From NCBI GenBank assembly GCA_001766815.1, contig LYOS01000003.1, positions 175,254 through 207,253 on the forward strand: 32,000 bases of DNA, written 5' to 3'. How positions within the stretch are numbered: the first letter of the stretch is position 1; every line of letters begins with the position of its first letter. Of the stretch, positions 332-16,817 are shown piece by piece. Source of the DNA: Candidatus Syntropharchaeum caldarium. GTDB taxonomy: Archaea > Halobacteriota > Syntropharchaeia > Syntropharchaeales > Syntropharchaeaceae. The notes under the pieces were generated by a model. It searched no databases. It saw only the letters and a program-made list of their open reading frames with translations, and had not been told where the DNA came from. Made by a program: the position numbers and the translations under genes.

Positions 332-412
332 TGATAATAAAACAGGTAGATTACGTTACCACAAAACTTTATATGTTATTTGTGATATTACAGCAGTAAG
401 AGGGTAATCGAA

Positions 413-853: not shown

Positions 854-897
854 AGTGTGTTAAAGGCGCGAGGAAGCACCGTTATCTCGGTTAAGAG

Positions 898-2240: not shown

Positions 2241-2242
2241 AA

Positions 2243-4303
2243 ATGAAAACTGGAATTTTTTTATGTGGTTGTGGTGGAAACATCAGTGATGTGATCGATC
2301 TCAAAGAGATCAAAGAAATATTTGAGAGCGAGAAATTTTTTGTTAAAATCGATGAACATCTCTGTTCCAACCAGGGATGCAGGCTTATAGTGAATTCCAT
2401 CAAGGATTATGGGCTGGAAAGGATTGTTATTGCAGCATGCTCACCTATGATCCATGAAAATCGCTTTAAAAAGGCGATTGCAGATCTACTAAATTTAAAC
2501 TTTCTTCAGATCGCAAATATCAGGGAGCAATGTGGATGGGTGCATCCAGCAGATGAGGCAACAAGAAAAGCGGTTGCACTTATAGGTGCAAAAGTTGAGC
2601 GGGCGAAATACGCCACGCCACAAAAGCAAGAGAGGATTGAACCATACAGAAAAGTTGCGGTTATTGGTGGTGGGGTTTCTGGTATAACTGCTGCACTATC
2701 ACTTGCAAAGTGTGGCATTGAGGTGGATCTCATCGAGCAGGATGCAACGATCGGTGGACACATGGTTCAGATTGGAAAAGTATTTTCACCCGATAAGATC
2801 GCTATTGAATGTGCACTCTGCTCGCTTGCACCAATCATGAGCGATCTCTATAACCACCCATTGATCAATCTGTACGATCGGTCAACGTTGAAAGAAGCCA
2901 CAGAATCAATGGGTAGATTTGAGCTTGTGATCGAGCGATTGCCGCGATATGTAATCGATCGTCAGTGTCTTGAGTGCGGGAAGTGCATGTATGTATGTCC
3001 GGTACATGTGCCTGATGAATGTAACCTTGGCATGAAAATGAGAAGGGCAATTTACATTCCATTTCCTCAGGCTATTCCGCCAACATTTGTGGTTGATATT
3101 AAAGCATGCATTGAGTGTGGAAAGTGCATCGAAGCGTGTGAGTCTGGTGCGATCGATCTTAAGATGTCAAAAGAGGAGATCAAACTCAATGCTGGTGCGA
3201 TCGTGGTTGCAACAGGGTATAAACGATTCGATCTTGAGCGAATTAAAGAGTATGGATATGGGAGGTTAAATAATGTTATAAGCCAGATGGAGCTTGCAAG
3301 GATCCTTGCCGTAAATGGTCCAACTCAGGGTGAACTTCTGAGTATTTCTGATCGTAAGCCACCAAGAAGGATCACCATGATACAGTGTGCTGGATCGAGG
3401 GATGAGAAGGTTGGGAACAGTTATTGTTCAAAAATTTGCTGTATGATTGCATTGAAACATGCATCTTTCATCAGAGAGCACTTTCCAGAAACCGAGGTTG
3501 TGATTTCTTATACCGATATGCGCACGATGGGGAGATTTGAGGAGTATTATCGTTATGCACAGGATCTTGGTGTGATATTTATTCGGGGCAGAGCCTCTGA
3601 AGTCGTGGAACTTGATGGTACCCTTGCTGTGAGGATGGAGGATACACTTTCTGGAGATCAGATCGAGGTTGAGTCTGATATGGTCGTCCTCTCTGAGGGA
3701 CTTGAAGCATCAGATGGTACAATTAAAGTTGCAGAGATCCTGAATCTGAACCAGCGGGAGGGGGGTTTCATAAAAGAAGCACACCCAAAGCTTCGGCCCG
3801 TTGGTACAGAGAGAAAAGGCATCTACGTCTGTGGGTGTGCAAATGGCCCAAAAGACATCACTGAGAGTGTCATCGAGGCAGGTGCTGTCTCATCAGAGGT
3901 GATCGCTCACCTCACAGGTAAAATTGAACTCAACTCAAAGGACATTAGCGACGATGAATTTCTTGCAGAGATCAATGGACATTTCCAGTGGAAACAGGAG
4001 GGTGGGGGTGTGGTACTTGCCCTTCTTGATGAACAGGTTGGATACAGATGTGCTGATAACATCGGGGCAAAACGACTGAAGTATCCTGCCAGTATAAGGA
4101 TCATAATGGTACCATCGATCGAAACGGTAAAAGAAGAACATCTCAGGTATGCACTTGATAAAGGGGCAGATCGAATCATTCTTGGGCTGCACAATGGTCT
4201 CGATCTTGAGATTCCAGAGGATCTTGAAGGTAGAGTAATAAAAGAGAATGTCTATACACCACACTTCAGGGGATTGAGAGATATATTTCTGAATCTGGGA
4301 TAA
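2243..4303 (+). CDS. hdrA: Heterodisulfide reductase subunit A-like flavoprotein with a C-terminal cysteine-free MvhD-like domain
   Basis: The HdrA N-terminal domain is present (GIFLCGCGGNISDV, AACSPMIHE, ANIREQCGWVH). So are the FAD motif VAVIGGGVSGITAALSLAKCG and the inserted ferredoxin domain (CLECGKCMYVCP, CIECGKCIEACE). The CAGSRD and CSKICC motifs are also present. The last ~97 aa align to MvhD but lack its cysteines. Confidence 0.85.
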   Translation: MKTGIFLCGCGGNISDVIDLKEIKEIFESEKFFVKIDEHLCSNQGCRLIVNSIKDYGLERIVIAACSPMIHENRFKKAIADLLNLNFLQIANIREQCGWVHPADEATRKAVALIGAKVERAKYATPQKQERIEPYRKVAVIGGGVSGITAALSLAKCGIEVDLIEQDATIGGHMVQIGKVFSPDKIAIECALCSLAPIMSDLYNHPLINLYDRSTLKEATESMGRFELVIERLPRYVIDRQCLECGKCMYVCPVHVPDECNLGMKMRRAIYIPFPQAIPPTFVVDIKACIECGKCIEACESGAIDLKMSKEEIKLNAGAIVVATGYKRFDLERIKEYGYGRLNNVISQMELARILAVNGPTQGELLSISDRKPPRRITMIQCAGSRDEKVGNSYCSKICCMIALKHASFIREHFPETEVVISYTDMRTMGRFEEYYRYAQDLGVIFIRGRASEVVELDGTLAVRMEDTLSGDQIEVESDMVVLSEGLEASDGTIKVAEILNLNQREGGFIKEAHPKLRPVGTERKGIYVCGCANGPKDITESVIEAGAVSSEVIAHLTGKIELNSKDISDDEFLAEINGHFQWKQEGGGVVLALLDEQVGYRCADNIGAKRLKYPASIRIIMVPSIETVKEEHLRYALDKGADRIILGLHNGLDLEIPEDLEGRVIKENVYTPHFRGLRDIFLNLG

Positions 4304-4305
4304 TC

Positions 4306-4641
4306 ATGAACGACAGGATAAAATCGAGAGAAAAAGCAATATTTGAAGCAGGAATTAAACTTGGAGCGCTGTATCATCAATTCATTGGTTCTCCAGTAAG
4401 TCCTGAGAGTGCAGATTCACTTGAGCGTGCGATAGAGGAAAGCATCAGAAACCAGCCCTATGTTGAATCAATCTCAGTGAGGATTGATAGAAACCATCTC
4501 AAAGAGAACCTGAACAGCTTTGGGTACACAGAGCTTACAGGGCTGATGCTTGAGGTTGAGCTTGCTGTAAAAGTTGATGAAACCCGCATTCATGCAGGAA
4601 TGAAACCTGTTGATGGCTATCCATTGATGTCACTGCTTTAA
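4306..4641 (+). CDS. mptD: Probable archaeal dihydroneopterin aldolase (MptD family, tetrahydromethanopterin biosynthesis)
   Basis: 111 aa. The N-terminal REKAIFEAGIKLGALYHQFIGSPVS matches my recollection of the small archaeal DHNA/MptD family. The start lies 2 nt after the hdrA stop. The assignment is from memory and was not searched. Confidence 0.5.
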   Translation: MNDRIKSREKAIFEAGIKLGALYHQFIGSPVSPESADSLERAIEESIRNQPYVESISVRIDRNHLKENLNSFGYTELTGLMLEVELAVKVDETRIHAGMKPVDGYPLMSLL

Positions 4642-7600
4642 CCGTGATTTTACATAGTCATCAGACTCAAGGTCAAGCCGATCCACCGCAGGGGTTGATA
4701 CGCTGGCAAGCACATCAAAAAAAACATCTTCAATCATCCTCTTTGCCTCCTCGTCCCTGCCCTCTATCCTGCATATCATCATCGGCTGTGTATTTGACTT
4801 TCTAACAAGTGCCTGTCCAAGCCATCCGTTCTCATCCTGCCATTTCACTATTCCGCCATCCGTTCTATCAATCTCAAGTCCCATCTCCTCAAAAACTTTG
4901 ATTACTGTATTTACAATTTCCTCCTTCTCTGCGAGATTGTTTGTGGGTAGCCTGATGTTTATCTCTGGTGTTGCAGGATATCTCGGAACTTCTTCATCAA
5001 GATCAATAAACGTCATGCCTTTACGCCTTGCTTTTGCAATCACAGTGAGAATCTTGACCGCTGCAAGCGTTCCATCATCAAACATCCAGTTCTCATCATG
5101 CCCTGACATCTGGTGCCCTGAAAGCTCTGCTGCGAGGACAACGTCCTCACCCTGTTTATATATCTCACGCATCCGTTTTTTTATAAAAGCAAAACCCGTC
5201 GGGGTCATTATATATTCGCCACCACAGGCTGTTATAAACTCCTCTGCAACGCGGGAGAACTTAACCTCGCCGATAAACTTCGGTTTCCTGGTTGGACAAT
5301 CCCAATCACTCAGAATGTCTTTTGCCTGTATTGCAAGTGTCCTGTCTCCCTCAACAACTCTCCCATCAGATCGAATGAAGATCACACGATCTGCATCCTC
5401 ATCATGTCCAAATCCTACAACTTCCTTCTCAGATTCACTGGCAGCAATCTTTACCACCGTATTTTCAAGCTCCTGCCTGTATTTCGCTTTTATTGGATCT
5501 GGATGATGAGCAGGGAAGTTTCCATCAGGTACGTCGTTCAGTGCCACAACCTCACACCCAAGGTTCTCATATACACTCACTGTACGCCAGCCTGTACCAT
5601 TCCCAAAATCGATCACAACCTTCAAACCGTCAAGTGGCCTCTCGACTGCGGTCTCTGGCATATCAAACTCATCTGGAATCCTGAGTTTTGCTCTGATCTC
5701 CTTCCACTTTTCTTCATCGATCGATTCGGGAAATTTAATCCCTGAAAGCGTATCAAGAAGTGGCTTTAACTCCCAGTTCTTTCGAAGATGAATCCAGACA
5801 GGTCTTGAAAGCCTGCAGTTTGATTCAACAAGTATGTTATGGTACCTGGGTATCAAACCCTCCTCAATCTTAACGTATTCACCATTTCCATAGAGAAAAT
5901 CTGATTCAAGAATTGTCCTCTTTATCTCAAGCATCTGGTCGCTATTTATACTTAAAATAAATCCATCTGCATCTTTTATAACCTGTTTAAGTCCATTGTA
6001 AGCTGCTTCATTATGCGATGCAGTAATATTTATTCCACCATCTGCATTTAAAAATGGGATTGAGAAGTAGAGTTCAGGGGTTGTGGTTATTCCCACATCA
6101 TAGACATTTACACCGCTTTTGCGTATACCGTCGATAAGTGGCTTTCTTATCCGTTCTGTTGAAAGCCTCACACCCCCACCAACACAGACCCATAATGTGC
6201 CAGGTTCTGCACCTTTTAACCTTCTGAGATAGGTACCATACCCCATTCCAAGATAATAGCATACTCTGTCAGGCAGATCTTTCTCTAATGCTCGCACATC
6301 GTATGTCTGGAATATCACAGGATCTATCGATTCGGGTGTCCGAAGGTATGCATTCAGGACCTTTCCTTTCGTACTCAGGTTATATGAGTCAATTGATGCA
6401 GGAACAAGGACAGTATCCCCTGTTTTAAGCACTTCATGCTTCTCGCCAACCTCAAGCGTAGCCTCTCCCTCGATACAGGTTAGAAGATGGAAAGAACCTT
6501 TAGTCTCCCATCTCCCGCTACCTATGGTAGAAAGTGTGAAATAGACCGTATCAAGGAGATTTATCTCCCCATCACGCTCAACTGGTTGCTGTCTCAGTGA
6601 TGCTGCATCTCGATTAAATACACATACTTTTTGAGCCTTCTCTATCTGCAGTTCTCTATCTCTGCCCCAGTCCCACACCCTGTATGTTAAATTTGACGAT
6701 TCCTGAATCTCGAAAAGACGAACACCCGCACCTATTGCGTGCAACGTACCTGCTGGAATTAGAAACACATCTCCCTGCTTCACATCAACCGCATTGAGGC
6801 AGGAGTCATCGATCATTGCGAGATCTGTTATCGTTTTGCAGAGGCTGAGATAGATCTTTGCATCTTTTTGTGCATCCAGAATGTACCATCCTTCCATTTT
6901 TCCTGGATCACACTCGCCGAGTGCTGCTGCGTCATCATCGGATGGGTGCACCTGCACAGAGAGGTTCTCTTTTGACTCGATGAACTTGGTTATTATCGGG
7001 AATTCTCCTCTGAAGTCTCTTGCAATCACACCTCCAAGAATCTTATCTGAAGCATGGTTCAGAAGGTGGATCAGTGGGATCTCAATCTCACCAGTTTCTA
7101 CCATCGTCTGATTTGCAGGATGTGTCGAAGCTGTCCATACCTCAGATCCCCACGCCTTATCAAGCCGCGCTGGTTTTAACCTGAGCACTGAATGACTGAG
7201 TTCATCAAAGAGCTTACCAAATCCTGCTGCAAAATATTTCTCCCATATGCGCTTCTCCTTTTCCATCTCATCGTGTGTGACATTTTCCATCAGCTTTTCA
7301 AGTTCGCTGTAGGAGTAGGGATTTGGAAGAAGTCTCTTATCCCAGTCCTTCTTTCCATCACGAAATATTCCCCTTCTCATTCTTATTTTTCCTTTTTCTG
7401 GATGGAAAATGTCTGAAACAACTTCTTTATCGGCTGAAAACCCTGAAAGTTCGATACAGTTGTAGATAAGTGATTCTGTAGCATGCACTTCATTCAACAT
7501 ACTTGAAACCACAACACACGCGGCAAGATCTGAGTTATAAATTGTACTATCTACCAGTGGGCTGCTCCCTTCTCCAAAGAAGCGACGCATCGTCTCACCC

Positions 7601-8628
7601 TCTGCTGTATCTGCTGTCAGCTTGAGGAGATTCTGATGGTAGAGATTTGCCTGCCCAAAGTCCCACCAGTACGTCCCTTCTCCCATATCTTTATCCCCAA
7701 ATATCGGTCCATCCTTCTCAAATCGCTTAATCAACCCTTCAAGACGTTTTCGTTTCGCTTCATCAACAAATTGAGGTGAGGTTAGCGGCATCCATAGATC
7801 GGGATCTGTATCAAGTTTTCTCTTCTCCTCAAGGTCTTTCTTAAACCCAGCTGATCTGTCTTTTGCAAACTCATAAGAGACCGAGAAGCATCCAAGCCCT
7901 TTTGCGATATGTATCTTTCCATTTTTTTCCTTTACAACTCCCTCTTCAATCAGTTTCAGAAACTCATCCCATGTCTGTTTCTCAAGCAGTCTGGCACCCT
8001 CGCCATCAGGGATTACAAGCCCGTATGACTGCCAGTTCTTCTCCCATTCTTCACGTGTTTTTGGTGCTTCACCCCTTATACTCAGAAGTTCGACGTGATA
8101 TTTCCCCTCATATGATACGTCATCTGTTGATGGTATGAAAATCTGATCTGTCCAGAATACACAGAGCCTGCCACTGCGTGATGGCGCAAATATCGAGGTC
8201 TGATATATCACTGCTTCAAGAAGCCTCATTGGTACTTTCTTTCCATCCAGATCAAGCAATCCAGGGAGTCTGATCGCGGATTTATCATTCCCCTCTGATG
8301 CAACGATGGGCGCCATTCGCTTGCCATGACCCGCGGTATGGTAGATTGCAATCCTGCCGCCTTTCTCAAGAAGTGCATAGAGGTCTTCTTTTTTACAGAC
8401 TTCCCGCCATGCATTAAGTGTACCAAGAAGTTGACCTGCTTCCCATTCTTCAACAACGACATAAATTCGTGTATTTTCACCCATAATCTGATTTTTGACT
8501 TTGTTAAGTCTATCCTGCCAGAATAACGCCTGTTTCCTGCTTGATGTCACAACAATGACTCGATCAAATCCTTTAGAGGCACGAACGATCTCCTTCATCT
8601 GCTGTATATGGGTGTGATGCGAATTCAT
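4630..8628 (-). CDS. 1332-aa three-domain fusion of a GDP-fucose-pyrophosphorylase-like sugar-1-P nucleotidyltransferase, a type I mannose-6-phosphate isomerase and a phosphomannomutase/phosphoglucomutase
   Basis: The ORF is uninterrupted for 3999 nt. aa 1-480 are GFPP/fucokinase-N-like (FDRVIVVTSSRKQALFWQDRL, AIYHTAGHGKRMAP, LCVFWTDQIFIPS). aa ~483-768 are PMI type I (LKPARLDKAWGSEVW, SVQVHPSD, KMEGWYIL, IPAGTLHAIG, YRVWDWGR). aa ~770-1332 are PMM/PGM (IFQTYDVRA, TASHNEAAYNGLK, HDEDADR, AAELSGH, RKSNTQP). A GGGAGTGAT SD lies upstream of the ATG. Confidence 0.85.
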   Translation of the reverse strand: MNSHHTHIQQMKEIVRASKGFDRVIVVTSSRKQALFWQDRLNKVKNQIMGENTRIYVVVEEWEAGQLLGTLNAWREVCKKEDLYALLEKGGRIAIYHTAGHGKRMAPIVASEGNDKSAIRLPGLLDLDGKKVPMRLLEAVIYQTSIFAPSRSGRLCVFWTDQIFIPSTDDVSYEGKYHVELLSIRGEAPKTREEWEKNWQSYGLVIPDGEGARLLEKQTWDEFLKLIEEGVVKEKNGKIHIAKGLGCFSVSYEFAKDRSAGFKKDLEEKRKLDTDPDLWMPLTSPQFVDEAKRKRLEGLIKRFEKDGPIFGDKDMGEGTYWWDFGQANLYHQNLLKLTADTAEGETMRRFFGEGSSPLVDSTIYNSDLAACVVVSSMLNEVHATESLIYNCIELSGFSADKEVVSDIFHPEKGKIRMRRGIFRDGKKDWDKRLLPNPYSYSELEKLMENVTHDEMEKEKRIWEKYFAAGFGKLFDELSHSVLRLKPARLDKAWGSEVWTASTHPANQTMVETGEIEIPLIHLLNHASDKILGGVIARDFRGEFPIITKFIESKENLSVQVHPSDDDAAALGECDPGKMEGWYILDAQKDAKIYLSLCKTITDLAMIDDSCLNAVDVKQGDVFLIPAGTLHAIGAGVRLFEIQESSNLTYRVWDWGRDRELQIEKAQKVCVFNRDAASLRQQPVERDGEINLLDTVYFTLSTIGSGRWETKGSFHLLTCIEGEATLEVGEKHEVLKTGDTVLVPASIDSYNLSTKGKVLNAYLRTPESIDPVIFQTYDVRALEKDLPDRVCYYLGMGYGTYLRRLKGAEPGTLWVCVGGGVRLSTERIRKPLIDGIRKSGVNVYDVGITTTPELYFSIPFLNADGGINITASHNEAAYNGLKQVIKDADGFILSINSDQMLEIKRTILESDFLYGNGEYVKIEEGLIPRYHNILVESNCRLSRPVWIHLRKNWELKPLLDTLSGIKFPESIDEEKWKEIRAKLRIPDEFDMPETAVERPLDGLKVVIDFGNGTGWRTVSVYENLGCEVVALNDVPDGNFPAHHPDPIKAKYRQELENTVVKIAASESEKEVVGFGHDEDADRVIFIRSDGRVVEGDRTLAIQAKDILSDWDCPTRKPKFIGEVKFSRVAEEFITACGGEYIMTPTGFAFIKKRMREIYKQGEDVVLAAELSGHQMSGHDENWMFDDGTLAAVKILTVIAKARRKGMTFIDLDEEVPRYPATPEINIRLPTNNLAEKEEIVNTVIKVFEEMGLEIDRTDGGIVKWQDENGWLGQALVRKSNTQPMMICRIEGRDEEAKRMIEDVFFDVLASVSTPAVDRLDLESDDYVKSRLKQ

Positions 8629-8650
8629 ACTGTGATATCACTCCCAAACG

Positions 8651-8685
8651 ATAAATATATTCTTTCTCTACCAAAAAATATATAA
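8651..8685. promoter_or_regulatory. Divergent promoter region with two TATA-like boxes between the fusion gene (minus) and the small ORF (plus)
   Basis: ATAAATATATT (8651-8661) and AAAAAATATATAA (8673-8685) sit in the 118-nt gap between divergent start codons at 8628 and 8747. The call rests on position and composition only. Confidence 0.3.
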
Positions 8686-8746
8686 CAATTCACTGTGATT
8701 AAATGCTGGATATTAATATTAATGGATGTCCAGGAGGTGATATAAG

Positions 8747-9040
8747 ATGGGACTCACGGCAAGAGAGACACTTGAACGACATGCGAGCGCTGCCATTGCA
8801 GGAGATATGGATACTGTGCTTGCAGATCTCACACCCGAGATTGCTGCAAACATCGGACCTGTCGCAGAGGCACTGGCAAAGGTAAATCCAACCTCATTTG
8901 AGATCATGGATGAGGCGAAAGAAGGTGCGAACTACGTCTTCACGTACCGCTACATCGGAAAAGATAGCGATCTAAAGCTCAAAACCGTATGGGAACTTCA
9001 GGGCGATGCATGGAAGATAGTTGCAGCCGAACCACTATAG
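8747..9040 (+). CDS. Small hypothetical protein (97 aa), possibly with an NTF2/SnoaL-like fold
   Basis: A strong SD, GGAGGTGA, lies 6-7 nt upstream of the ATG. The composition looks coding and there are no recognisable catalytic motifs. The fold guess comes only from the pattern ...AIAGDMDTVLADL...W.L.GD.WKI. Confidence 0.55.
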   Translation: MGLTARETLERHASAAIAGDMDTVLADLTPEIAANIGPVAEALAKVNPTSFEIMDEAKEGANYVFTYRYIGKDSDLKLKTVWELQGDAWKIVAAEPL

Positions 9041-9448
9041 TTATTTACCAGCCAACGGATTCACACCGAGCTTCTTTACAGTCTCTGTAAACTCCTCGAC
9101 AATCTCTGCAAAACTCTTTCCAGCCGCCTCAAGCTGAAATACCTCAAGCCGCTCTTCACCAAGACCGATCGTTTTGAGATGCCCTTTTAATATCTCCACT
9201 CGCCGCTTTGCGTGGTTGTTACCGTTTAGATAGAGACATCTACCATCCATACATGCTGCAACAAATACACCGTCTGCACCCATCTCAAACGCCTTCAGGA
9301 TATGCATCACGTCTGTTTTTCCGCTGCATGGAAGTCGAATTATTCTTAAATTCGATGGATAACTTCTTTTCTCAACGCCTGCACGATCAGCAGCTGCGTA
9401 CGAGCACGAATTGCAGCAGAACCCGATGATCTTCGGTTCAAATGTCAT
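9041..9448 (-). CDS. mvhD: MvhD-type (methyl-viologen-reducing hydrogenase delta subunit / FlpD family) [2Fe-2S] adaptor protein, copy b
   Basis: IIGFCCNSCSYAAADRAG...YPSNLRIIRLPCSGKTD...GADGVFVAACMDGRCLY is the MvhD signature with its cysteines retained. The start overlaps the hdrA stop by 4 nt. Confidence 0.85.
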   Translation of the reverse strand: MTFEPKIIGFCCNSCSYAAADRAGVEKRSYPSNLRIIRLPCSGKTDVMHILKAFEMGADGVFVAACMDGRCLYLNGNNHAKRRVEILKGHLKTIGLGEERLEVFQLEAAGKSFAEIVEEFTETVKKLGVNPLAGK

Positions 9449-12006
9449 GAGACCACCCCCAGTACCTCTTCAAGCTGTGCAAGGATCTCATCATCAGAGA
9501 AACATCCAACCTGAATCGCCTTTGCAGGACATTCTGATGCACAGACGCCACAACCACGACAAAGCCCTGATATAATCTCTGCACGATCGTAGACCATCCT
9601 GACAGCCTTGTATGGACAGAGATCAACGCACGTCTCGCATGCGATACATGCTGTCTGTGAGACCTTTGCAATCTCTCCTTTCCCCTGGATACTCGTTGAT
9701 TTAAGCACTCTCAGGGCACGCCCAGCAGCACCAATTGCATCACGCAGGGCTTCTTCGGGTGTAACGGGTCTTTTTGCATTCCCGCAGACATAGATCCCAT
9801 CTATCACGGTATCAAGTGGATACAGGCTCACTTCTGGCTGATTTGAGAGTGTAAAGATGTAACCTGCATCATCAAGCTTCAATCTGAAGTTAAATGCAAT
9901 CTTGAGACGGTCTGATACCGGAGCAGGATCAACTCCACCCCCCAGCACAACAAGATCTGGCTTGATCTGGACTTCATCGCCGAGCATCGTATCAAAGACT
10001 GATACGATCCCATCCTCGTAGACTGGTGGGTTATCTGGTTCATATCTCAGGAATATGACTCCACTCGCCCTTGCATCCCTGTAAAGCTTCTCATAGATGC
10101 CATACGTCTTAACATCCTCGCAGAGCACGAATACTTCAGTCTGAGGATTATTCTTCCTGATCTCAAGTGCGTTTGCGACCATCTCGATGCTTGCGACCAT
10201 CGACGAATCACACTGGATCATCGCAACAGCCTTTGCATCGATCCCTGGATCAAGTTCAGCCTGGGTTATGACCTTTGAATCAGAACCATGGCCATACCTC
10301 CCTGCCGGGTCAAATGGTGATGCACCTGTTGCGATCACGATCGCACCAAACTCAAGCGTGCTATCACCCACACGAGCGGTGAAGTTTCCAACAAAGCCAT
10401 CGATCTGGTCGATCTCGGTTGAGGTCATAACCTCGATTAAAGTATTTGATTCAACCTGCCCGATGAGGTCGCTGACAGCTTCATCTGGTGCACCACCACC
10501 GAGTTTATCCTCACGCTCGACCAAGTATACACCGATGCCGTTTGATGCAATCTCGAGTGATGCCCGCATACCAGCTATGCCTCCACCGATCACAAGTGCC
10601 TTCTGTGTAACGGGCAATCGTGCAACCTCGATTGGGGAGAGTCTTTTGAGCTTTGCTGCTGCCATCCTGATGAGATCGATCGATTTTGTGGTTGCTTCAT
10701 CACGTGGGTGCACCCATGCAGCATGCTCACGGATGTTTGCAATCTCAACAAGATAGCGGTTCAGACCCGCTCGCTCTGCCATGTCCCGCACCATCTCCTC
10801 ATGCTTGCGGTGCGAGAGACCTGCAACGATGATTCGGTTTGAGCCTGCTGTAACAAGCGACCCGATCTTTGATTCAAGTTCCTGTAAGGTTGCTGCCTCT
10901 TCGAGTGATGCTGCCAGATCTTTGATGCCAGCCTTCAACCTCTCAAGGTCAAGGTACTCGGCGAGGCCGTCTGTGAGGATGACAGCTCCGATCACGGGAT
11001 CACCTGAGATCTCGATCTCTGGAATGGATTTAGCCTGAGGGGATAGATCCTCTGCTGCAAGTGTTGCTGCTGCCTCTGCCTGGATCACTGAGTCTGAGAT
11101 CCTCAAAGGTGTTGATACACAGCCCGCAGCATATATGCCATCGACCGATGTCTTTACACCATCACTCACCTTGATGTAGCCATCCTCGTCAAGCTCGACG
11201 CCGGTGAGTTCTGAGATCTTCTGTGTGGATTTTGATGGGAGCAGTCCGACAGCAAGCACAACCGCATCGAGATCGAGTCGCTCGAGTTTTCCCTCTTTTA
11301 CATTTTCATACTGGACACAGATATTGCCGTTGTCTGTTATAACCTCGGGGATGCGGGTTCTGATGTAGTTGACACCCTCTGCCTTGAGCTTCTCGATCGT
11401 CTTTGCATCCCTGCCTGCAACCCTCAGATCCATGTAGAAGACGTATACCTCCACGTCTGGATTGCGGGCAAGCAGTGTCTTCACCTCGTTTGCGGTGTAC
11501 ATGCAGCAGACCGATGAGCAGAGTGGGTTGACATCTGGCTCACGTGAACCGATACACTGGATGAATCCGATTTTATTGATGTTATCAGGGAGTTTACCAC
11601 CTGTGGGGCTTGAGAGCGAGATCACTCGCTCGAATTCGAGCGAGGTATAGACGTTTGGATTTTCAAGGTGATAGCGTGACCAGATCGATGGATCAAATGG
11701 TTCATAGCCTGTTGCAAGTATGATCGATGATGCGTTTATGGTGCTGCCGTTTGAGAGCGTTATCGTGAAGTTTCCGGCTACACCATCGACCTTCTCAATG
11801 GTTGTACCTGTTATGATCTCGATCAATGGGTTTGCCTCAGCCTCGATCAGTTTTGGTTCAAAGCCGCTCACACAGTCGGCAATCTCTACCATGTGGCCGC
11901 CTGGTGTCTCTTTCTCCTCGATCAACGTGACCGACGTCCCCCTGTCTGCTAAAGAGAGGGCAGCCATGATTCCAGCTATCCCACCACCGATTACAGCGAC
12001 GGTCAT
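9445..12006 (-). CDS. hdrA: Tandem (double) HdrA-like flavoprotein with two FAD-binding halves, an internal cysteine-free HdrA-N-domain copy and a C-terminal 2x[4Fe-4S] ferredoxin domain
   Basis: There are two Rossmann motifs (VAVIGGGIAGIMAALSLADRG, ALVIGGGIAGMRASLEIASNG). CIGSRE and CSSVCC occur only in half 1. The internal region has EIANIREHAAWVHPRDEAT. The C-terminus has CIACETCVDLCP and CRGCGVCASECP. The start directly abuts the hdrB stop. Confidence 0.85.
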   Translation of the reverse strand: MTVAVIGGGIAGIMAALSLADRGTSVTLIEEKETPGGHMVEIADCVSGFEPKLIEAEANPLIEIITGTTIEKVDGVAGNFTITLSNGSTINASSIILATGYEPFDPSIWSRYHLENPNVYTSLEFERVISLSSPTGGKLPDNINKIGFIQCIGSREPDVNPLCSSVCCMYTANEVKTLLARNPDVEVYVFYMDLRVAGRDAKTIEKLKAEGVNYIRTRIPEVITDNGNICVQYENVKEGKLERLDLDAVVLAVGLLPSKSTQKISELTGVELDEDGYIKVSDGVKTSVDGIYAAGCVSTPLRISDSVIQAEAAATLAAEDLSPQAKSIPEIEISGDPVIGAVILTDGLAEYLDLERLKAGIKDLAASLEEAATLQELESKIGSLVTAGSNRIIVAGLSHRKHEEMVRDMAERAGLNRYLVEIANIREHAAWVHPRDEATTKSIDLIRMAAAKLKRLSPIEVARLPVTQKALVIGGGIAGMRASLEIASNGIGVYLVEREDKLGGGAPDEAVSDLIGQVESNTLIEVMTSTEIDQIDGFVGNFTARVGDSTLEFGAIVIATGASPFDPAGRYGHGSDSKVITQAELDPGIDAKAVAMIQCDSSMVASIEMVANALEIRKNNPQTEVFVLCEDVKTYGIYEKLYRDARASGVIFLRYEPDNPPVYEDGIVSVFDTMLGDEVQIKPDLVVLGGGVDPAPVSDRLKIAFNFRLKLDDAGYIFTLSNQPEVSLYPLDTVIDGIYVCGNAKRPVTPEEALRDAIGAAGRALRVLKSTSIQGKGEIAKVSQTACIACETCVDLCPYKAVRMVYDRAEIISGLCRGCGVCASECPAKAIQVGCFSDDEILAQLEEVLGVVS

Positions 12007-12885
12007 TTAGATCACTTTCTCCTCGATAGTTTTTGTCGATACGATGTTCTTGTTCAGACCAAGCTTCTTTGGATCGATTCCGAGACCCAGACCGACAAAC
12101 TGTGTGAAATAAAGAACTGGCATATCGAGCTTAATCCCAAAAGCAGCCTCGATATCGGGTTGCTTTGCATCAAGCATCATATGGCAGAGTGGGCATGCAG
12201 TCACGACACAGTCTGCACCCTTTGCCTTCGCATCCTCAAGCAGGTTCTTTGTCATCTCAAATGCAAGGTCGCTTCGTGTCATCATCAAAGGCCCGCCACA
12301 GCACTTTGCTTTCATCTGACTGTATGGTATCACCTCACCACCGAGTGCCTCTATCATCTTATCCATCGTTTCAGGGTTGTCAGGATCGTCAAATCCAAGC
12401 CTCGATGGTCGTCCCATGTAGCAGCCATAGTAAGGAGCAACCTTCACTGGTATCTTCTTCTCGATTCTCTTGGCTATCTCATCCAGCCCTATCTCGTTGA
12501 CGATGACATCAACAACATGCTTTGCCTTCACCGAGCCCTTGTACTCAAGTGCTGGATCGATCGCTTTCAGCTTACCCTTAAGCTCTTCATCACCCTCAAT
12601 TGCCTCATTTGTACGGGCGAGGTTATAGAAGCAGACACTGCAGGATGTTACCATCATCTTGAGGTCATCCTTCTCTGCGATGGCAAGGTTTCTTGCATTC
12701 AGGGCATAGACCATCATTGGATCTTCCGCCTCTGCCGCACCACAACAGTTCCAATCTTCAACCTCGATAAGTTCAATCCCCAGCTTCTCGAAGATTGCTT
12801 TTGTTGACATGTCCTGTTCGATCGCATGCGACTCGCTTGGACAGCCCGGATAATACGCAAGTTTACTTACAGCCATCTCAATCAC
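12007..12885 (-). CDS. hdrB: CoB-CoM heterodisulfide reductase subunit B (two intact CCG domains)
   Basis: YYPGCPSE...WNCCGAAEA...VTSCSVCFYN and YYGCYMGRP...AKCCGGPLM...VTACPLCHMM are both complete. An alternative ATG at 12876 (MAVSK...) would remove the 8-nt overlap with hdrC. Confidence 0.9.
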   Translation of the reverse strand: MIEMAVSKLAYYPGCPSESHAIEQDMSTKAIFEKLGIELIEVEDWNCCGAAEAEDPMMVYALNARNLAIAEKDDLKMMVTSCSVCFYNLARTNEAIEGDEELKGKLKAIDPALEYKGSVKAKHVVDVIVNEIGLDEIAKRIEKKIPVKVAPYYGCYMGRPSRLGFDDPDNPETMDKMIEALGGEVIPYSQMKAKCCGGPLMMTRSDLAFEMTKNLLEDAKAKGADCVVTACPLCHMMLDAKQPDIEAAFGIKLDMPVLYFTQFVGLGLGIDPKKLGLNKNIVSTKTIEEKVI

Positions 12886-13474
12886 CCAGCTCCTTAAAGA
12901 TTTTCTTTACCTCACCTATCCGCTTTATCTTTGGGGGAAGCATCGACTTTGGCCCCATCTTTCCTTTCTTGAAGAGTCTCATCCCGAGCTTCTGATAGTC
13001 CTTCTGCATCGCTAACATACCTGAAATAAGACCCCCATGTGCTTTCTTGTAATATTCCATCGAGAGCCCCATCTCATACAGTCTGCCGTACTTCTCAAGC
13101 TGGTGCATAAACGCCTCCTCAAAGATTGGTCTGACAGCTTTAAGCTTAATATTGCCTTTGTGAGCTTCTTTTTCTGCAATCCGCCTGATAGCACCCATCA
13201 GGTCAGAGATCTTCACATCCTGTGGGCAGCGTTCAGAGCATGTCTGACAGACAGCACAGAGCCATATCTCTTCACTCTCAAGAACTTCATTTCTCATGCC
13301 AAGCAGGCTCATCTGTATTATTTTTCTCGGATTGTACGTTGATACAAGTTCTGAGATCGGGCATCCGACCGTACATGTTGAGCACTGGAAGCACTTCATG
13401 ATATTCTCGCCGCCAGGCATTGATGCTATTTCATACTTGAAGTTTGGAACGAGATCCCACGTCTTGATAGCCAA
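12878..13474 (-). CDS. hdrC: CoB-CoM heterodisulfide reductase subunit C (2x[4Fe-4S])
   Basis: CFQCSTCTVGCP and CAVCQTCSERCP are present, length is 198 aa, and the gene sits directly upstream of hdrB. Confidence 0.85.
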   Translation of the reverse strand: MAIKTWDLVPNFKYEIASMPGGENIMKCFQCSTCTVGCPISELVSTYNPRKIIQMSLLGMRNEVLESEEIWLCAVCQTCSERCPQDVKISDLMGAIRRIAEKEAHKGNIKLKAVRPIFEEAFMHQLEKYGRLYEMGLSMEYYKKAHGGLISGMLAMQKDYQKLGMRLFKKGKMGPKSMLPPKIKRIGEVKKIFKELGD

Positions 13475-13480
13475 CTTAGA

Positions 13481-14536
13481 TCACCTCGGCTCAAGTTCGT
13501 CTTCTTCATACGTCGTGAGTGGGAGTGGTTCTTCGAGATCCACACCTGGCACATAATCGAAGATCGCCTGCACGTTCTTTGCCACAAGCGGGTAAATTGC
13601 TGTCAACGGCAATCCTTTTGGACACGCATCTTCACACGCACCGCATGCGACACATGTAACGCAGACGTGGTATGCCCTCGTTAAGTGATAGAATAGACCG
13701 TAAGGCGGCATTCGAAGATCTCCCCGGGTATTTGCGAGGTTCAGCATATCACCGCCACGGGGATCACCAAGAGGTTGCTCAAAGAAACATTCCTTACAGT
13801 AGCAGACAGGGCACATATCCCTGCAGTTCTTGCAGACAATACAATCATTCAATGCCTCAAGAAGTTTTACCGGGTCGTTCAATGCCTCGAGGTCTTTCTT
13901 GAGTGCTTCTCGTCCACTATCTGCTGCTGATTTTATCTCATCCTTGAGTGAAGAGCGATCAATCTCCTTCTCATCGAGCGTTATGCCCTCGACCTTCGAG
14001 AGTGCAGCCTCGCCCTTTTCATTGAGCACCATGAGCGTTGTTGTATCAAGCCCTGTATAGCAGATCCCAAGATCGCCGATATCTCCAAGCTTCGTCTCAC
14101 ACATCGTGCAGGCAGATCTCATCTCAATGCCTTCTATGCTCCCGGTGAGTTTATCCCCGATCTTATCGGCATTTGCTGTGTAATCTTCATTCTTGAATGT
14201 TCCAGGACAATCAACACTGATTAAAAGAACTGCATCTGGATTGATCTGCTCGAGCTTGACAAGTTCGATCACCGCACGCGCCTCACATGGCTTGAATACA
14301 AGTCCAAGAACTTTATCCTCAACCAGCCACTTTCTCAGGCTATTTGCAGCATTGAAACCAAACGACGGTGCAAATGGAGCAGGACTCTTTATTTTCTCAG
14401 GATCAGTTACAAGTGTATAGATGATGCTTTTTCCTGATTTCTGTGGGACCACCAGTCCATCTACTGCTCCACCCGACAGAAGTCCTTTGAATAGACTAAT
14501 AAGTCCTTCATCACCCACTTCAGCACATTTTACCAT
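13481..14536 (-). CDS. Iron-sulfur protein with an FrhB/FdhB-family-like N-terminal part and a C-terminal two-cluster ferredoxin domain; a possible F420- or flavin-dependent electron-input subunit
   Basis: The N-terminal layout resembles FrhB (GLLSGGAVDGLVV; LGLVFKPCEARAVIELVK; LLISVDCPGTF; CTMCETKLGDIGDLGICYTG versus the FrhB-type C..C.D.....aDvs.G). The C-terminus has CIVCKNCRDMCPVCYC and CVTCVACGACEDACP. A GGAGGATGA SD lies upstream. Confidence 0.5.
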   Translation of the reverse strand: MVKCAEVGDEGLISLFKGLLSGGAVDGLVVPQKSGKSIIYTLVTDPEKIKSPAPFAPSFGFNAANSLRKWLVEDKVLGLVFKPCEARAVIELVKLEQINPDAVLLISVDCPGTFKNEDYTANADKIGDKLTGSIEGIEMRSACTMCETKLGDIGDLGICYTGLDTTTLMVLNEKGEAALSKVEGITLDEKEIDRSSLKDEIKSAADSGREALKKDLEALNDPVKLLEALNDCIVCKNCRDMCPVCYCKECFFEQPLGDPRGGDMLNLANTRGDLRMPPYGLFYHLTRAYHVCVTCVACGACEDACPKGLPLTAIYPLVAKNVQAIFDYVPGVDLEEPLPLTTYEEDELEPR

Positions 14537-14559
14537 ACTTCATCCTCCACATACGAAAT

Positions 14560-14982
14560 CTAAACTGTTTCCTCTTTGAGCGGGTTTGGTCCAAGCTTCT
14601 TCATATCCTCGACCATCTTCGTAACCTCTTCTGCAAACTGAGGCCCCTCACTTGCACTGATCCATCTCAGCCGCACCCGTTCATCAAGTCCAAAAGCCTT
14701 GAGAACCTCTCTCAACGCAGCGATCCTTCGTCTCGCATAGTAGTTACCTTTCGTGTAGTGGCAATCACCAGGGTGACAGCCACCCATGAAAACACCGTCA
14801 GCCCCGTTTGTGAGCGCTTTTATTACAAACAATGGATCCATACGTCCTGAACACATCACCCGAATTATACGAATATTAGGAGGATACTGAATCCTCGATG
14901 TTCCGGCAAGATCTGCTCCGGCGTAAGTACACCAGTTACATGTGAATCCAAGTATTTTCGGCTCAAACTCTTCTCCCATCAA
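14560..14982 (-). CDS. mvhD: MvhD-type [2Fe-2S] adaptor protein, copy a (first gene of the operon)
   Basis: ILGFTCNWCTYAGADLAG...YPPNIRIIRVMCSGRMD...GADGVFMGGCHPGDCHY is a canonical MvhD signature. A GGAGGG SD lies directly upstream of the ATG. Confidence 0.9.
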   Translation of the reverse strand: MMGEEFEPKILGFTCNWCTYAGADLAGTSRIQYPPNIRIIRVMCSGRMDPLFVIKALTNGADGVFMGGCHPGDCHYTKGNYYARRRIAALREVLKAFGLDERVRLRWISASEGPQFAEEVTKMVEDMKKLGPNPLKEETV

Positions 14983-15037
14983 AACCCTCCATTAAATGAA
15001 ACCTCTTTGATCAATTACTCAATCTCTTTATTTGTAG

Positions 15038-15044
15038 CATTTAA
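15038..15044 (-). promoter_or_regulatory. TATA-like box (TTTAAAT on the minus strand), candidate promoter of the mvhD-frhB-like-hdrCBA-mvhD operon
   Basis: This is the only strong A/T box in the 179-nt gap upstream of mvhD-a. It lies ~56 nt upstream of the ATG, which leaves room for a ~30-nt leader containing the GGAGGG SD. Confidence 0.35.
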
Positions 15045-15161
15045 AGTTTGCTATTCTGTTGCCTCTCTTGGATGGGGGAACACGAAATTTAGTGAACTTG
15101 ATGCCAGAAAGAGTGAAGATTACCTCGAGGGATGTTACCATCATTGAATCTTGTAGCGGAC

Positions 15162-15857
15162 TTATAGAATTGCAACAAGAAGTCCAATCAGGATGACAAG
15201 ATATATCGCTTCGAAGTTTCCTCTACCACCGAGACTGAATACCGGGCTTCCAGCCTCAATATCTATCGAAAAGATCTTTGACAGAAGCCCGAGTTCGATG
15301 CCGATTATTCCTGATACAAGCATCCCACTTATAATGTCTACTGGGGTTACGAGGATTGCAAGTGGGAGTGAGAGAAGCCCTATATGGGGCGGCGCAACGA
15401 TCCCAATCCCAGGTTCAATGAATGCAAGCAGGTTTGTAACCGCAAACATGATTATTGCAATTATCACAAACTCTTCGAGTGAGACCGGTGAGATTATACC
15501 GATAACGAGTGCGAAGAGAAGTGGCAGGATGAAACCACCGAGATTGAGTGTGATCATTGAGTCATAGAGCCTGCCGTCACTTCCCTCGATCTCTTCTCGG
15601 GGGACTGAATGTAACCGCTCAAGCGTTTTAATTTCATTTTCGGTATATCTGGGCTTTTTGGTCTTCTTTTTAAGTACTGGGATCTCTATTATGCTCAAAA
15701 GTAAAAACAACAGCGATATTGCAAAGAAGACGAGAGGGTTCAGACTGAATTCAAACGCTGATGGCTCTATACGATATGCAAGGATAAAAATAGGGGATAG
15801 AAGGAATATAAAGAATAGCATCATTCTCAAATCTGGATAACGGACTATACCACGCAT
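15162..15857 (-). CDS. Polytopic integral membrane protein, possibly DUF1614 family
   Basis: About 6 hydrophobic segments are present. Glycine-rich motifs NLGGFILPLLFA and SLGGRGNFEAIYL resemble what I recall of DUF1614. The start could instead be the internal MM at aa 12-13. Confidence 0.45.
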   Translation of the reverse strand: MRGIVRYPDLRMMLFFIFLLSPIFILAYRIEPSAFEFSLNPLVFFAISLLFLLLSIIEIPVLKKKTKKPRYTENEIKTLERLHSVPREEIEGSDGRLYDSMITLNLGGFILPLLFALVIGIISPVSLEEFVIIAIIMFAVTNLLAFIEPGIGIVAPPHIGLLSLPLAILVTPVDIISGMLVSGIIGIELGLLSKIFSIDIEAGSPVFSLGGRGNFEAIYLVILIGLLVAIL

Positions 15858-15908: not shown

Positions 15909-15966
15909 CTTTCGTATTAATCTCATCCTGCATAACTTTAATATCACAGCCCGCTGATGATTGTTT

Positions 15967-16146
15967 ATGAAACGTGAGCTTATGGAGATTCTTGCCTGTC
16001 CTATCTGCAAGGGCGAACTCGAACTTGATGTTACCGTAGAGAACGATGAGATCGAGGAAGGCATACTTCGATGTGATGCCTGCAATGAATCGTATCCGAT
16101 CAAAGATGGAATCCCAAATCTATTACCACCAGAATTAAGGGCATAA
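15967..16146 (+). CDS. trm112: Trm112-family small zinc-ribbon protein (methyltransferase activator)
   Basis: LMEILACPICKGEL...LRCDACNESYPIKDGIPNLL is the Trm112/UPF0434 signature. The ORF track starts at TTG 15961, but ATG 15967 (MKREL) is the more likely start. Confidence 0.8.
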   Translation: MKRELMEILACPICKGELELDVTVENDEIEEGILRCDACNESYPIKDGIPNLLPPELRA

Positions 16147-16160
16147 AGGGCATAAATAAG

Positions 16161-16817
16161 ATGGATAGGGTGGCTGAGATAGAAGAGCATGTGCATATTG
16201 GAAGAAAAGGTACAGACTCGATCGAGTTTGACAGGGATGAGTTGAAGTTATCGCTCCAGCCCGGTGAGGAGACGAGTTTTACGGTTACAATCAGTAACTA
16301 TACAATCCCGACACACGTCCATTTTGCGCTCGACCGGGAACTCAGGGACTTCCTTACGATCATAAATGAGAACCCTTATGTTCGAACCGAGGAGAAGATC
16401 CCGATTGTTGTAAGAGTTCCAAAAGATAGCACAGAGGACATCTACAGCGGCAGGGTCCATGTTATCAGTGGATATGGATCTGTGAAGGGTAGTTTTACCG
16501 TCACAATTAGTGTGAGGGTGGAGAAACCTGAAATGAATGGGCGATTTGAAGAAAAAGCTCCAATAAGGGTTTCGATACCGCGTAAAAGCATTAAAAGGAT
16601 TAAAATCAAAGATAAAGTACCGCTGGGGATCTTGAACAAAAAGACAAAACTCTCGCGGGATGTACTGGTGGCAACTGGCATCACATCGTTAATACTGATC
16701 TTTCTCACCTATCTATTTATCTTCAATCCAGCTTCCTTCGGGATATCACTCCTCACATCAATTCTGGTTATGCTTCTTGTATTCTATATATTTAACATCT
16801 ACAGAGGTCAAAGATGA
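16161..16817 (+). CDS. Hypothetical membrane-anchored protein with an N-terminal beta-rich soluble domain and two C-terminal TM helices
   Basis: 218 aa. The alternating beta-strand-like pattern ([41 protein letters not shown]) is followed by a basic linker, then [20 protein letters not shown] and [17 protein letters not shown]. The stop overlaps the pyrG start (ATGA). Confidence 0.5.

Follow-up and report, generated by a model that had tools for sequence, protein, structure and literature searches.

A six-gene operon of the heterodisulfide reductase (Hdr) type lies in a 32,000-nucleotide stretch of DNA from Candidatus Syntrophoarchaeum caldarius, the whole of which is referred to here as the window. 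Six open reading frames (ORFs) on the minus strand, of 140, 351, 198, 292, 853, and 135 amino acids (aa), follow one another with intergenic spacings of +23, +6, −8, 0, and −4 nt and encode, in that order, the adaptor MvhD-a, an iron–sulfur (Fe–S) protein related to FdhB and ElpB, HdrC, HdrB, a fused HdrA, and a second adaptor, MvhD-b (Table 1). A first-pass annotation of the sequence had picked out the same packed ORFs, with the same coordinates and spacing, along with TTTAAAT and GGAGGG motifs ahead of the first gene, and all of these were recovered. It had further proposed the operon as a candidate self-contained complex linking F420(H2), or another two-electron carrier, to ferredoxin and to the heterodisulfide of coenzymes M and B (CoM-S-S-CoB). 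That the six genes specify one Hdr-type complex, with neither a hydrogenase nor a formate dehydrogenase (FDH) and with two adaptors of different kinds, is well supported by the evidence described here.

Table 1. Features of the six-gene operon (positions are those of the window; the fused hdrA gene is given as two parts)
Feature	Positions	Strand	Remarks
TTTAAAT, candidate archaeal TATA box	15039–15045	−	~60 nt upstream of mvhD-a start; read from sequence
GGAGGG ribosome-binding site	14985–14990	−	5 nt ahead of ATG 14979; read from sequence
mvhD-a, [2Fe-2S] adaptor	14560–14982	−	Pfam FlpD 183 bits; Cys 15, 18, 44, 69, 74
FdhB/ElpB-fold Fe–S protein, 351 aa, the literature's 'FrhB4' clade	13481–14536	−	
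hdrC, two [4Fe-4S] clusters	12878–13474	−	Fer4_8/9/17 matches; motifs at residues 28 and 73
hdrB, two CCG domains (non-cubane cluster, disulfide site)	12007–12885	−	Pfam CCG, motif search
hdrA half 1 and linker, residues 1–387	10846–12006	−	FAD domain and proximal [4Fe-4S]
hdrA half 2, residues 388–853	9445–10845	−	N-domain remnant, second FAD domain, C-terminal ferredoxin domain
mvhD-b, [2Fe-2S] adaptor	9041–9448	−	Pfam FlpD 151 bits

Two of the start codons are most likely set too far upstream in the ORF calls. By comparison with orthologs, mvhD-a most likely begins at ATG 14979, one codon inside the TTG, which gives the 139 aa found in the Syntropharchaeales loci L001 and L062, and hdrB at ATG 12876, which gives the 289 aa of its orthologs and turns the 8-nt overlap with hdrC into a 1-nt gap. 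No base separates the hdrB stop codon from the start of hdrA, and hdrA and mvhD-b have 4 nt in common. Both adaptors are full-length FlpD/MvhD proteins with five conserved Cys each (Pfam and motif search). HdrC contains CxxCxxCxxxC twice, and HdrB contains C-x(n)-CC-x(n)-CxxC twice, with both CCG motifs complete, ten Cys for two non-cubane clusters, and a Pfam CCG score of 97.8 bits in two stretches. Scores against equivalog models are low: 197 bits for HdrB with TIGR03288 (cutoff 345) and, for HdrC, 89 bits with TIGR03290 (cutoff 160) and 92 bits with the N-terminal part of QmoC, both under the curated NCBIfam cutoffs. These two subunits are thus divergent. When the window's ORFs were scanned with Pfam, neither a hydrogenase nor FdhA nor any other molybdopterin protein turned up, and none of these ORFs matched metF (methylenetetrahydrofolate reductase, MTHFR) or metV (DUF5981). 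The first-pass description of two MvhDs that keep their Cys, an HdrB with intact CCG motifs, an 853-aa double HdrA, and no catalytic hydrogenase or Fdh subunit in 32 kb is borne out in each respect by profiles, motif searches, and, for HdrA, alignment. The window also encodes Ftr, Fae-Hps, and NrpR, which, with a second Hdr cluster described below, mark its source as an archaeon of the methanogen or alkanotroph type.

Conservation of the gene order supports the first-pass idea of a single Hdr-type module. MvhD-b is 100% identical to a protein of Candidatus S. caldarius, and the other five operon products are 99% identical to Guaymas-type Syntropharchaeales metagenome-assembled genome (MAG) proteins. 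The order mvhD, fdhB-like, hdrC, hdrB, and fused hdrA recurs in Syntropharchaeales (L001, L062, and L063, the window-type operons proper) and in anaerobic methanotrophic archaea of group 1 (ANME-1; L003, L005, L006, and L007). No hydrogenase or FdhA gene was found near the orthologous operons in L001–L003, L005–L007, L062, and L063. A family-alignment scan of 185,579 species genomes, with archaeal contexts taken from individual protein look-ups, returned at least 50 loci, which among the matches listed are mostly bacterial (Desulfobacterota, Chloroflexota, Clostridia, and Planctomycetota), with Thermoplasmata in addition. Nearly all of them have mvhD immediately upstream of the fdhB-like gene, with a fused hdrA and hdrC/hdrB adjoining. 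Among the matches listed, FdhA adjoins full-length homologs of the 351-aa protein in 0 of 41 loci and occurs only beside distant short paralogs of ~280 aa, at 8 of 14 such loci; the orthologs are thus not consistently paired with a hydrogenase or Fdh catalytic subunit.

Several of these loci carry further genes. Two-MvhD arrangements also occur in a Clostridia genome (L008) and an Anaerolineae genome (L023); in the former, a MAG, positions 89–8223 of the locus encode mvhD, an fdhB-like gene, an hdrC-like gene, an hdrA of 1480 aa, mvhD, and a second, shorter FdhB-like protein (319 aa). In 13 of the 41 loci with full-length homologs (matches listed), an Fe–S protein and an FAD_binding_2 flavoprotein are encoded directly downstream of the fdhB-like gene. 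The pair consists of a ~250-aa 2Fe-2S/4Fe-4S protein and a ~560-aa flavoprotein of the fumarate-reductase/AprA type (L011, L014, L015, L018, L021, L023–L027, L029, and L054) and could act there as the module's catalytic partner. The same ~250/~560-aa ORF pairs were considered as a selenocysteine-split FdhA, a reading rejected on their Pfam assignments to the two families just named.

The 351-aa protein has the fold of FdhB and ElpB. It matches three solved FdhB/ElpB chains with E values of 1e-27 to 1e-23 (phmmer), and its AlphaFold2 (AF2) model, with a predicted local distance difference test score (pLDDT) of 87 and a predicted template modeling score (pTM) of 0.87, superposes in Foldseek on 7bkb_E and 8rvu_E with a template modeling score (TM) of 0.77, followed by FrhB, Fsr, and the F420-dependent subunits of Fwd and carbon monoxide dehydrogenase. 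Fifteen Cys are invariant across 53 clade members, drawn from Syntropharchaeales, ANME-1, Alkanophaga, and bacteria, and suffice for three to four [4Fe-4S] clusters. The four ligands of the flavin-adjacent [4Fe-4S] cluster are among the residues kept in all 53 (Cys84, 110, 143, and 146, equivalent to Cys104, 134, 192, and 195 of FrhB). Family profiles tell a different story: FrhB_FdhB_C (PF04432) reaches 23.1 bits against a cutoff of 23.3, over model positions 4–66 of 150, and is a weak match across the clade, and FrhB_FdhB_N (PF04422) matches none of the 53 members. With the same settings, the N- and C-terminal profiles score 67.7 and 131 bits on solved FdhB and 62 and 114 bits on ElpB. The first-pass label "FrhB-like" accordingly holds at the level of fold and is marginal at the level of Pfam.

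The cofactor site departs from that of FrhB in each sequence comparison made. In FrhB, the flavin/F420 site is built from four elements, namely the 24-QDGG pyrophosphate loop, the G73–T77 adenine/isoalloxazine loop, the Cys134 loop, and a lid formed by residues 128–188 (PMC3591093, PMC3930138); the QDGG loop wraps the pyrophosphate of flavin adenine dinucleotide (FAD), and the lid domain forms the F420 access channel (PMC3930138, PMC3591093). The solved FdhB/ElpB chains carry the corresponding motifs ECGG, GSLH, and NCGGT, and 61 residues separate their second cluster Cys from the third. The flavin- and F420-binding hallmarks shared by every solved family member are missing in the 351-aa clade. 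In the window protein, the Gly-Gly of QDGG/ECGG is replaced by Asp9-Glu10, and an in-register Gly-Gly occurs in 0 of 53 clade members. The adenine loop (GSKY in FrhB, GSLH in FdhB/ElpB) reads PFAPS, following a clade pattern of P-F/L-A-P in which Ala56 and Pro57 are each kept in 49 of 53 proteins. Between cluster Cys2 and Cys3, the lid spans 32 residues, within a range of 32–45 for 48 of the 53, as against about 57–62 in FrhB/FdhB (57 in FrhB, 61 in FdhB 9t1s_M), so that about half of the F420-channel lid is gone. Bacterial FdhA-linked FdhB-like paralogs likewise have no Gly-Gly motif, so FdhB-like proteins that are pure Fe–S connectors exist. Loss of canonical FAD and F420 binding in the 351-aa clade is moderately supported by this pattern, and so, as the most likely function of the subunit, is that of an Fe–S-only antenna or docking module.

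Both the literature and the first-pass annotation have instead taken the FdhB-like subunit for an F420-reactive flavoprotein. Comparable Hdr/FrhB/MvhD sets had indeed been noted in genome surveys, as the annotation stated (PMC9012536, PMC11543930, PMC12054007). Chadwick 2022 discussed confurcation to F420 for ANME-1 HdrA clusters that have FdhB and no FdhA (PMC9012536), and Chen 2024 built the S. butanivorans model on "HdrABC-FrhB" confurcation, citing an FrhB4-clade gene beside hdrABC (PMC11543930, Supplementary Note 9). That a hydrogenase-free, F420H2-dependent Hdr exists was established by Nomura 2025, who purified and solved the bifurcating ElpABC-HdrABC complex of Methanothermobacter marburgensis by cryo-electron microscopy (8RVU, 8RVV, and 8RVY; PMC12350162). 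The annotation's statement that no biochemical or structural work on the subunit set was known is outdated for this analogue; for the exact subunit set found here, no characterization was found. The F420 model is also thermodynamically sensible for an alkane oxidizer, agrees with the F420/tetrahydromethanopterin (H4MPT) metabolism indicated by Ftr and Fae-Hps in the window, and draws on the FdhB/ElpB fold and the Fe–S ligands of the protein itself. Against it stand the clade-wide loss or truncation of three of the four FrhB-family site elements, the failure of PF04422 to detect any member when controls score 62–68 bits, and the window HdrA, which has no ferredoxin-interacting arm and an Asn in place of K409. 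About half of the clade members, moreover, are bacterial (Clostridia, Chloroflexota, and Desulfobacterota). These bacterial groups are not known for F420-dependent catabolism, which counts against an F420-reactive subunit. On this balance we consider the F420 model rather unlikely, and the features of the 351-aa clade, together with a ferredoxin branch that also looks degenerate, make the published F420-coupled mechanism doubtful for this operon; an Fe–S-only antenna remains the preferred assignment.

The fused HdrA also departs from its solved relatives. Profiles recognize two HdrA-type FAD domains (GGGIAG at residues 7 and 474) and a C-terminal 2×[4Fe-4S] domain, and the AF2 model of the whole chain (pLDDT 86, pTM 0.87) retrieves HdrA chains in Foldseek. 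Alignment to solved chains places an FAD domain at residues 1–330, with neither the N-terminal nor the inserted ferredoxin domain, an N-domain remnant at 388–465, the second FAD domain at 466–770, and a C-terminal ferredoxin domain at 780–835. In 5ODC numbering, used here for all equivalences, the proximal cluster is held by Cys386, 399, 403, and 404. Half 1 keeps these ligands (Cys151, 163, 167, and 168) and Glu126, the equivalent of E356, and has Asn173 at the Lys409 position and Ser47 at the Cys197 position. Half 2 has lost the proximal cluster, the Cys197 region, Lys409, and the N-domain Cys: Asp and Ala occupy the Glu356 and Lys409 positions, and the N-domain Cys are replaced by Leu, Met, and Ala. 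Its C-terminal ferredoxin domain is intact (Cys787–826), and the second FAD site is conserved, with GxGxxG, Glu497, and Gly737/742 invariant. Neither half contains the inserted ferredoxin motif. The Glu356/Lys409 pair at flavin N5, a proposed signature of bifurcation, is thus incomplete in the window HdrA.

Orthologs arrange these losses in a series. The ~1000-aa HdrA forms of Asgard archaea, Methanofastidiosia, and many bacteria keep Cys194, Cys197, Lys409, and three N-domain Cys, together with the inserted ferredoxin domain and, in most cases, the two proximal clusters. The ANME-1 forms (890–925 aa) have no inserted ferredoxin domain, Cys197, or second proximal cluster, and those of Syntrophoarchaeum (853–872 aa) additionally have no N-domain Cys and no Lys409, a residue that every ANME-1 or bacterial ortholog checked has in half 1. 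In S. caldarius only, the half-2 proximal motif was removed by an 8-residue in-frame deletion plus substitutions (10181–10225, minus strand; HdrA ~594–608); the site reads MIQC--------DSSMVASIEM, and the motif of the S. butanivorans paralog is intact (MIQCVGSRDGERGCSRICC). As aligned, the series shows a stepwise reduction of the fused HdrA, and from the window protein the canonical low-potential (ferredoxin) arm is absent. Because only half 2 has a ferredoxin domain and only half 1 a proximal cluster, the protein can be read as a pseudo-dimer with one functional track to HdrBC, an assignment that is well supported by analogy with solved HdrA dimers. The literature searched yielded no report of a structure for a fused HdrA or for a MetFV–Hdr complex.

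Such losses also invite another interpretation, in which the complex does not bifurcate at all and acts as a linear oxidoreductase. Single electrons would pass along a wire of FAD, MvhD, and the FdhB-like protein that joins the thiol/disulfide site of HdrBC to a one-electron partner outside the complex (ferredoxin, or a cytochrome- or membrane-linked carrier), half 2 and its FAD being structural only. The loss of the whole low-potential arm and the replacement of Lys409 in both halves fit such a wire, as does the resemblance of half 1 to minimal sHdrA (6tjr_A, TM 0.83), and the lineage-specific deletion that cost half 2 its proximal cluster points to decay. Non-bifurcating HdrA-like proteins have been told apart by their missing Glu/Lys pair (PMC12054007). 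However, Glu356 is kept in half 1, the two well-conserved MvhDs and the conserved second FAD site argue for more than a wire, and thiol oxidation at about −140 mV needs a higher-potential acceptor, none of which is encoded in the operon. A purely linear wire is for these reasons quite unlikely, and a pseudo-dimer served by two adaptors is preferred.

The two adaptors differ in origin, and the operon is of chimeric ancestry. MvhD-a and MvhD-b share 50% identity and fall into separate clades, and their interpretation as recent duplicates was rejected on both counts. In a neighbor-joining tree (135 columns, 200 bootstraps), MvhD-a groups with MvhDs encoded upstream of fdhB-like genes, with 100% support for its grouping with L062 and L001 and 93% for that with ANME-1. 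MvhD-b belongs to a separate, 100%-supported clade of MvhDs placed after fused hdrA genes; its nearest relatives come from metV-metF-hdrA-mvhD clusters of Syntrophoarchaeum and other Syntropharchaeia (L060, L057, and L061), and the clade also includes Moorella-type clusters (L058 and L059). The HdrA tree (862 columns, 100 bootstraps) gives a matching picture: the Syntrophoarchaeum-type HdrAs form one clade (100%) in which fdhB-like-linked proteins (window, L062, and L063) and metVF-linked ones (L060, P0154, and L064) are intermixed. The sister of this clade is a metVF-linked Syntropharchaeia HdrA (87%), apart from the fdhB-like-linked ANME-1 clade (100%). The simplest reading of the trees is that a metVF-type hdrA replaced the ANME-1-type gene at the operon end in the Syntrophoarchaeum lineage and that in S. 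caldarius the incoming hdrA kept its own mvhD, now encoding MvhD-b. At two loci, L063 (4713–6401) and L064 (3415–3951), the reduced hdrA is followed not by mvhD but by a gene for an HdrA-type flavoprotein with an inserted 2×[4Fe-4S] ferredoxin domain, which could make up in trans for the missing ferredoxin site; what follows the reduced HdrA downstream thus varies.

A candidate ortholog of the operon end in Candidatus S. butanivorans (L057) was rejected, since synteny with L060 identifies it as the metVF-hdrA-mvhD paralog. At that locus (7616–11453), the metVF-type hdrA-mvhD pair is found upstream of an operon of the mcrBGA (alkyl-CoM reductase) type, at a distance of ~5 kb, with a small multihaem-cytochrome-like gene and a NikR-type regulator in between.

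The ancestry of MvhD-b could be taken to mean that the window encodes two complexes, one of MvhD-a, the FdhB-like protein, and HdrCB and another in which HdrA–MvhD-b works with MetFV encoded elsewhere as a Moorella-type reductase of methylene-H4MPT or methylene-tetrahydrofolate, but although the nearest HdrA and MvhD-b relatives sit in metV-metF-hdrA-mvhD clusters without hdrBC (L060, L061, L057, and L064) and the trees place the window pair inside that lineage, this is very unlikely given that hdrA abuts the hdrB stop codon and is itself overlapped by mvhD-b, that the hdrB-then-hdrA order is kept in L001, L062, L063, and ANME-1, that the first complex would have no flavoprotein of its own without HdrA, and that no MTHFR gene lies in the 32 kb.

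Known systems share some features with a single complex of these six subunits and differ from it in others. Closest is Elp-Hdr, to which the 351-aa protein and the window HdrA alike are structurally most similar. It too dispenses with a hydrogenase, feeds HdrA through an FdhB-type subunit and an MvhD-type adaptor, and has HdrB and HdrC of the same kind. In that complex, electrons travel from the ElpB clusters to the HA1/2 clusters of HdrA, the MvhD-type [2Fe-2S] cluster, and the FAD of the partner HdrA (PMC12350162). ElpB, however, keeps FAD, the ECGG and GSLH loops, and a full lid, none of which is found in the window protein, and the truncated FdhA of Elp-Hdr (ElpA) has no equivalent in the window. 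Elp-Hdr is further built on a homodimer of complete HdrA, with six clusters in each subunit and a ferredoxin arm, and uses one adaptor type, whereas the window encodes one fused HdrA with three clusters and two adaptor types.

Fused and tandem HdrA genes were described by Chadwick 2022, who proposed intramolecular heterodimers (PMC9012536), and such fused proteins were classed as type II HdrA by Lyu 2025 (PMC12054007). The type II proteins (HdrA3/4; PMC9012536, PMC12054007), among them those of the "FdhB-only" HdrA clusters of ANME-1 and of the HdrABC-FrhB4 cluster of Candidatus S. butanivorans (PMC11543930), likewise carry two FAD domains in one polypeptide. Their clusters encode HdrBC and MvhD as well, together with an FdhB homolog, and have a function proposed from genomics only. 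They differ in retaining an N-domain cluster in one half and Cys197 in the other, neither of which is kept in the window HdrA, and the "consistent" type II cluster includes a noncatalytic molybdopterin protein that the window operon does not encode. In the ANME-1 orthologs there is a single MvhD, and Lys409 is preserved along with most N-domain Cys, and the window HdrA falls phylogenetically in the metVF-linked lineage, unlike the fdhB-linked type II HdrA of ANME-1. With the MetFV-HdrABC-MvhD methylenetetrahydrofolate reductase of Moorella thermoacetica and the metV-metF-hdrA-mvhD clusters of Syntrophoarchaeum (PMC9012536, PMC5736913), the operon shares a fused HdrA with an MvhD of the MvhD-b subfamily right behind it, and, with the Moorella complex, HdrBC as a component. 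Unlike the Moorella type, the window has neither metF nor metV and adds MvhD-a and the FdhB-like protein, and fused HdrAs of the Moorella type and of bacteria still have their inserted ferredoxin domain and two proximal clusters. The canonical MvhAGD-HdrABC (5ODC) and FdhAB-MvhD-HdrABC(-Fmd) (7BKB) complexes are homologous in HdrB, HdrC, MvhD, and two parts of HdrA, its C-terminal ferredoxin domain and its FAD domain (proximal cluster included). They differ in having a catalytic donor subunit, in an HdrA that is neither fused nor asymmetric, and in possessing the N-domain cluster, Cys197, the inserted ferredoxin domain, and Lys409.

The reading we favor, with a probability of roughly 0.4, is that the operon encodes one cytoplasmic Hdr-type complex, free of hydrogenase and FDH, with a single electron track, two adaptor ports, and the FdhB-like protein as an Fe–S antenna. 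By homology with the wiring of Elp-Hdr and Fdh-Hdr, electrons would enter through the [4Fe-4S] chain of the FdhB-like subunit, cross the C-terminal ferredoxin domain of HdrA half 2 and the [2Fe-2S] cluster of an MvhD to the FAD of half 1, and continue through the proximal [4Fe-4S] cluster and HdrC to the non-cubane clusters of HdrB, where CoM-S-S-CoB would be interconverted with the thiol pair CoM-SH + CoB-SH. The FdhB-like subunit would exchange single electrons with ferredoxin or another Fe–S protein instead of acting as an F420-reactive flavoprotein; judging from its sequence, the redox partner of the complex is probably not F420 reached through this subunit. MvhD-b, derived from a metVF-type hdrA-mvhD cassette, would provide a second port, possibly to MetFV or to another partner encoded elsewhere, and its affinities hint that it might either stand in as a port for the ferredoxin arm that was lost or let MetFV dock. 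In a butane oxidizer, the probable direction is thiol oxidation, regenerating the heterodisulfide for alkyl-CoM reductase; this direction follows from the physiology of the organism.

Several parts of the first-pass reading do not carry over to this scheme. An F420 input finds no support in a clade that has shed the defining flavin/F420-site elements of FrhB, FdhB, and ElpB, nor does a ferredoxin output in an HdrA with no inserted ferredoxin domain, N-domain cluster, or Cys197 and with Asn at the Lys409 position. The description "self-contained" is likewise unsupported, as MvhD-b belongs to the metVF-hdrA-mvhD subfamily, which points to a port where a partner with its gene elsewhere may dock.

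A number of considerations weigh against the scheme we favor. All of its mechanistic steps rest on sequence and predicted structure. The P-x-A-P...N-x-A loop in the former flavin pocket of the 351-aa protein is kept in 49–50 of 53 members, which implies selection on the pocket and leaves room for a flavin or other cofactor bound in a noncanonical mode. MvhD-b is missing from the ANME-1 operons and from some relatives, L063 having an extra ferredoxin-domain HdrA instead, so that a second-port role would not be general. Published models assume F420 coupling for the 351-aa clade, and the thermodynamics of alkane oxidation favor a confurcation that yields a mid-potential two-electron carrier.

The operon bears on a long-standing question in anaerobic methane and alkane oxidation, namely how CoM-SH and CoB-SH are reoxidized in ANME-1 and Syntrophoarchaeum. 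ANME-1 has been reported to have no HdrDE (PMC9012536), and an "HdrABC-FrhB" confurcation to F420 has been built into current metabolic and thermodynamic models because of the same type of cluster (PMC11543930). The idea of F420/heterodisulfide/ferredoxin coupling by such clusters is thus an already published hypothesis, from which the operon deviates in three ways: the flavin site of the FrhB4 clade is degenerate, the ferredoxin arm is missing, and the adaptors are of two types. A bolder and unlikely extension holds that Hdr has been rewired in Syntrophoarchaeum, and partly in ANME-1, by discarding the ferredoxin arm and losing the FdhB-like flavin, the two MvhDs having become the non-thiol ports of one confurcating flavin. 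If it were true, the step in which HdrABC-FrhB reduces F420 in butane and methane models of Syntropharchaeia would be wrong, the heterodisulfide would be regenerated through other partners (for example, ferredoxin through the FdhB-like antenna and MetFV or another module through MvhD-b). Were biochemistry to confirm the missing flavin/F420 hallmarks and ferredoxin arm, the F420 step of the models would need revision and two-adaptor Hdr wiring would become a target for structural work. Should the 351-aa subunit bind flavin in some other way, cofactors would be held by the FrhB fold in a manner new for it.

Another Hdr cluster, on the plus strand at 898–4303 and unmentioned in the first-pass reading, is convergent with the six-gene operon at a distance of ~4.7 kb. 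This HdrA2B2C2-like cluster encodes HdrC (170 aa), HdrB (277 aa, with two CCG domains), and HdrA (686 aa). The HdrA carries an inserted ferredoxin domain and a truncated C-terminal MvhD/FlpD domain, of which the first half only is present. In ANME-1 L005 and L006, a second cluster of the order hdrA-hdrA-hdrC-hdrB adjoins the operon in divergent orientation.

Searches for tRNAs and Rfam elements in the window found none, and scans for sigma-70 promoters and intrinsic terminators, which gave counts no higher than in shuffled sequence, are inapplicable to archaea and were not used. Upstream of the operon lie genes for a DUF1614 membrane protein (15162–15857, minus strand), a Trm112-like zinc-ribbon protein (15961–16146, plus strand), and a DUF7524 protein (16161–16817, plus strand), neighbors that are not kept beside the operon in L001, L062, or ANME-1. 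On the other side, a 97-aa ORF with no Pfam match (8747–9040, plus strand) abuts the mvhD-b stop codon in convergent orientation with zero spacing. Beyond it, a 1332-aa ORF (4630–8628, minus strand) fuses a type I phosphomannose isomerase, a cupin, and all four phosphoglucomutase/phosphomannomutase domains behind an N-terminal stretch of ~490 aa without a Pfam match, and a 1342-aa homolog of this protein is encoded near the Hdr operon in L001.

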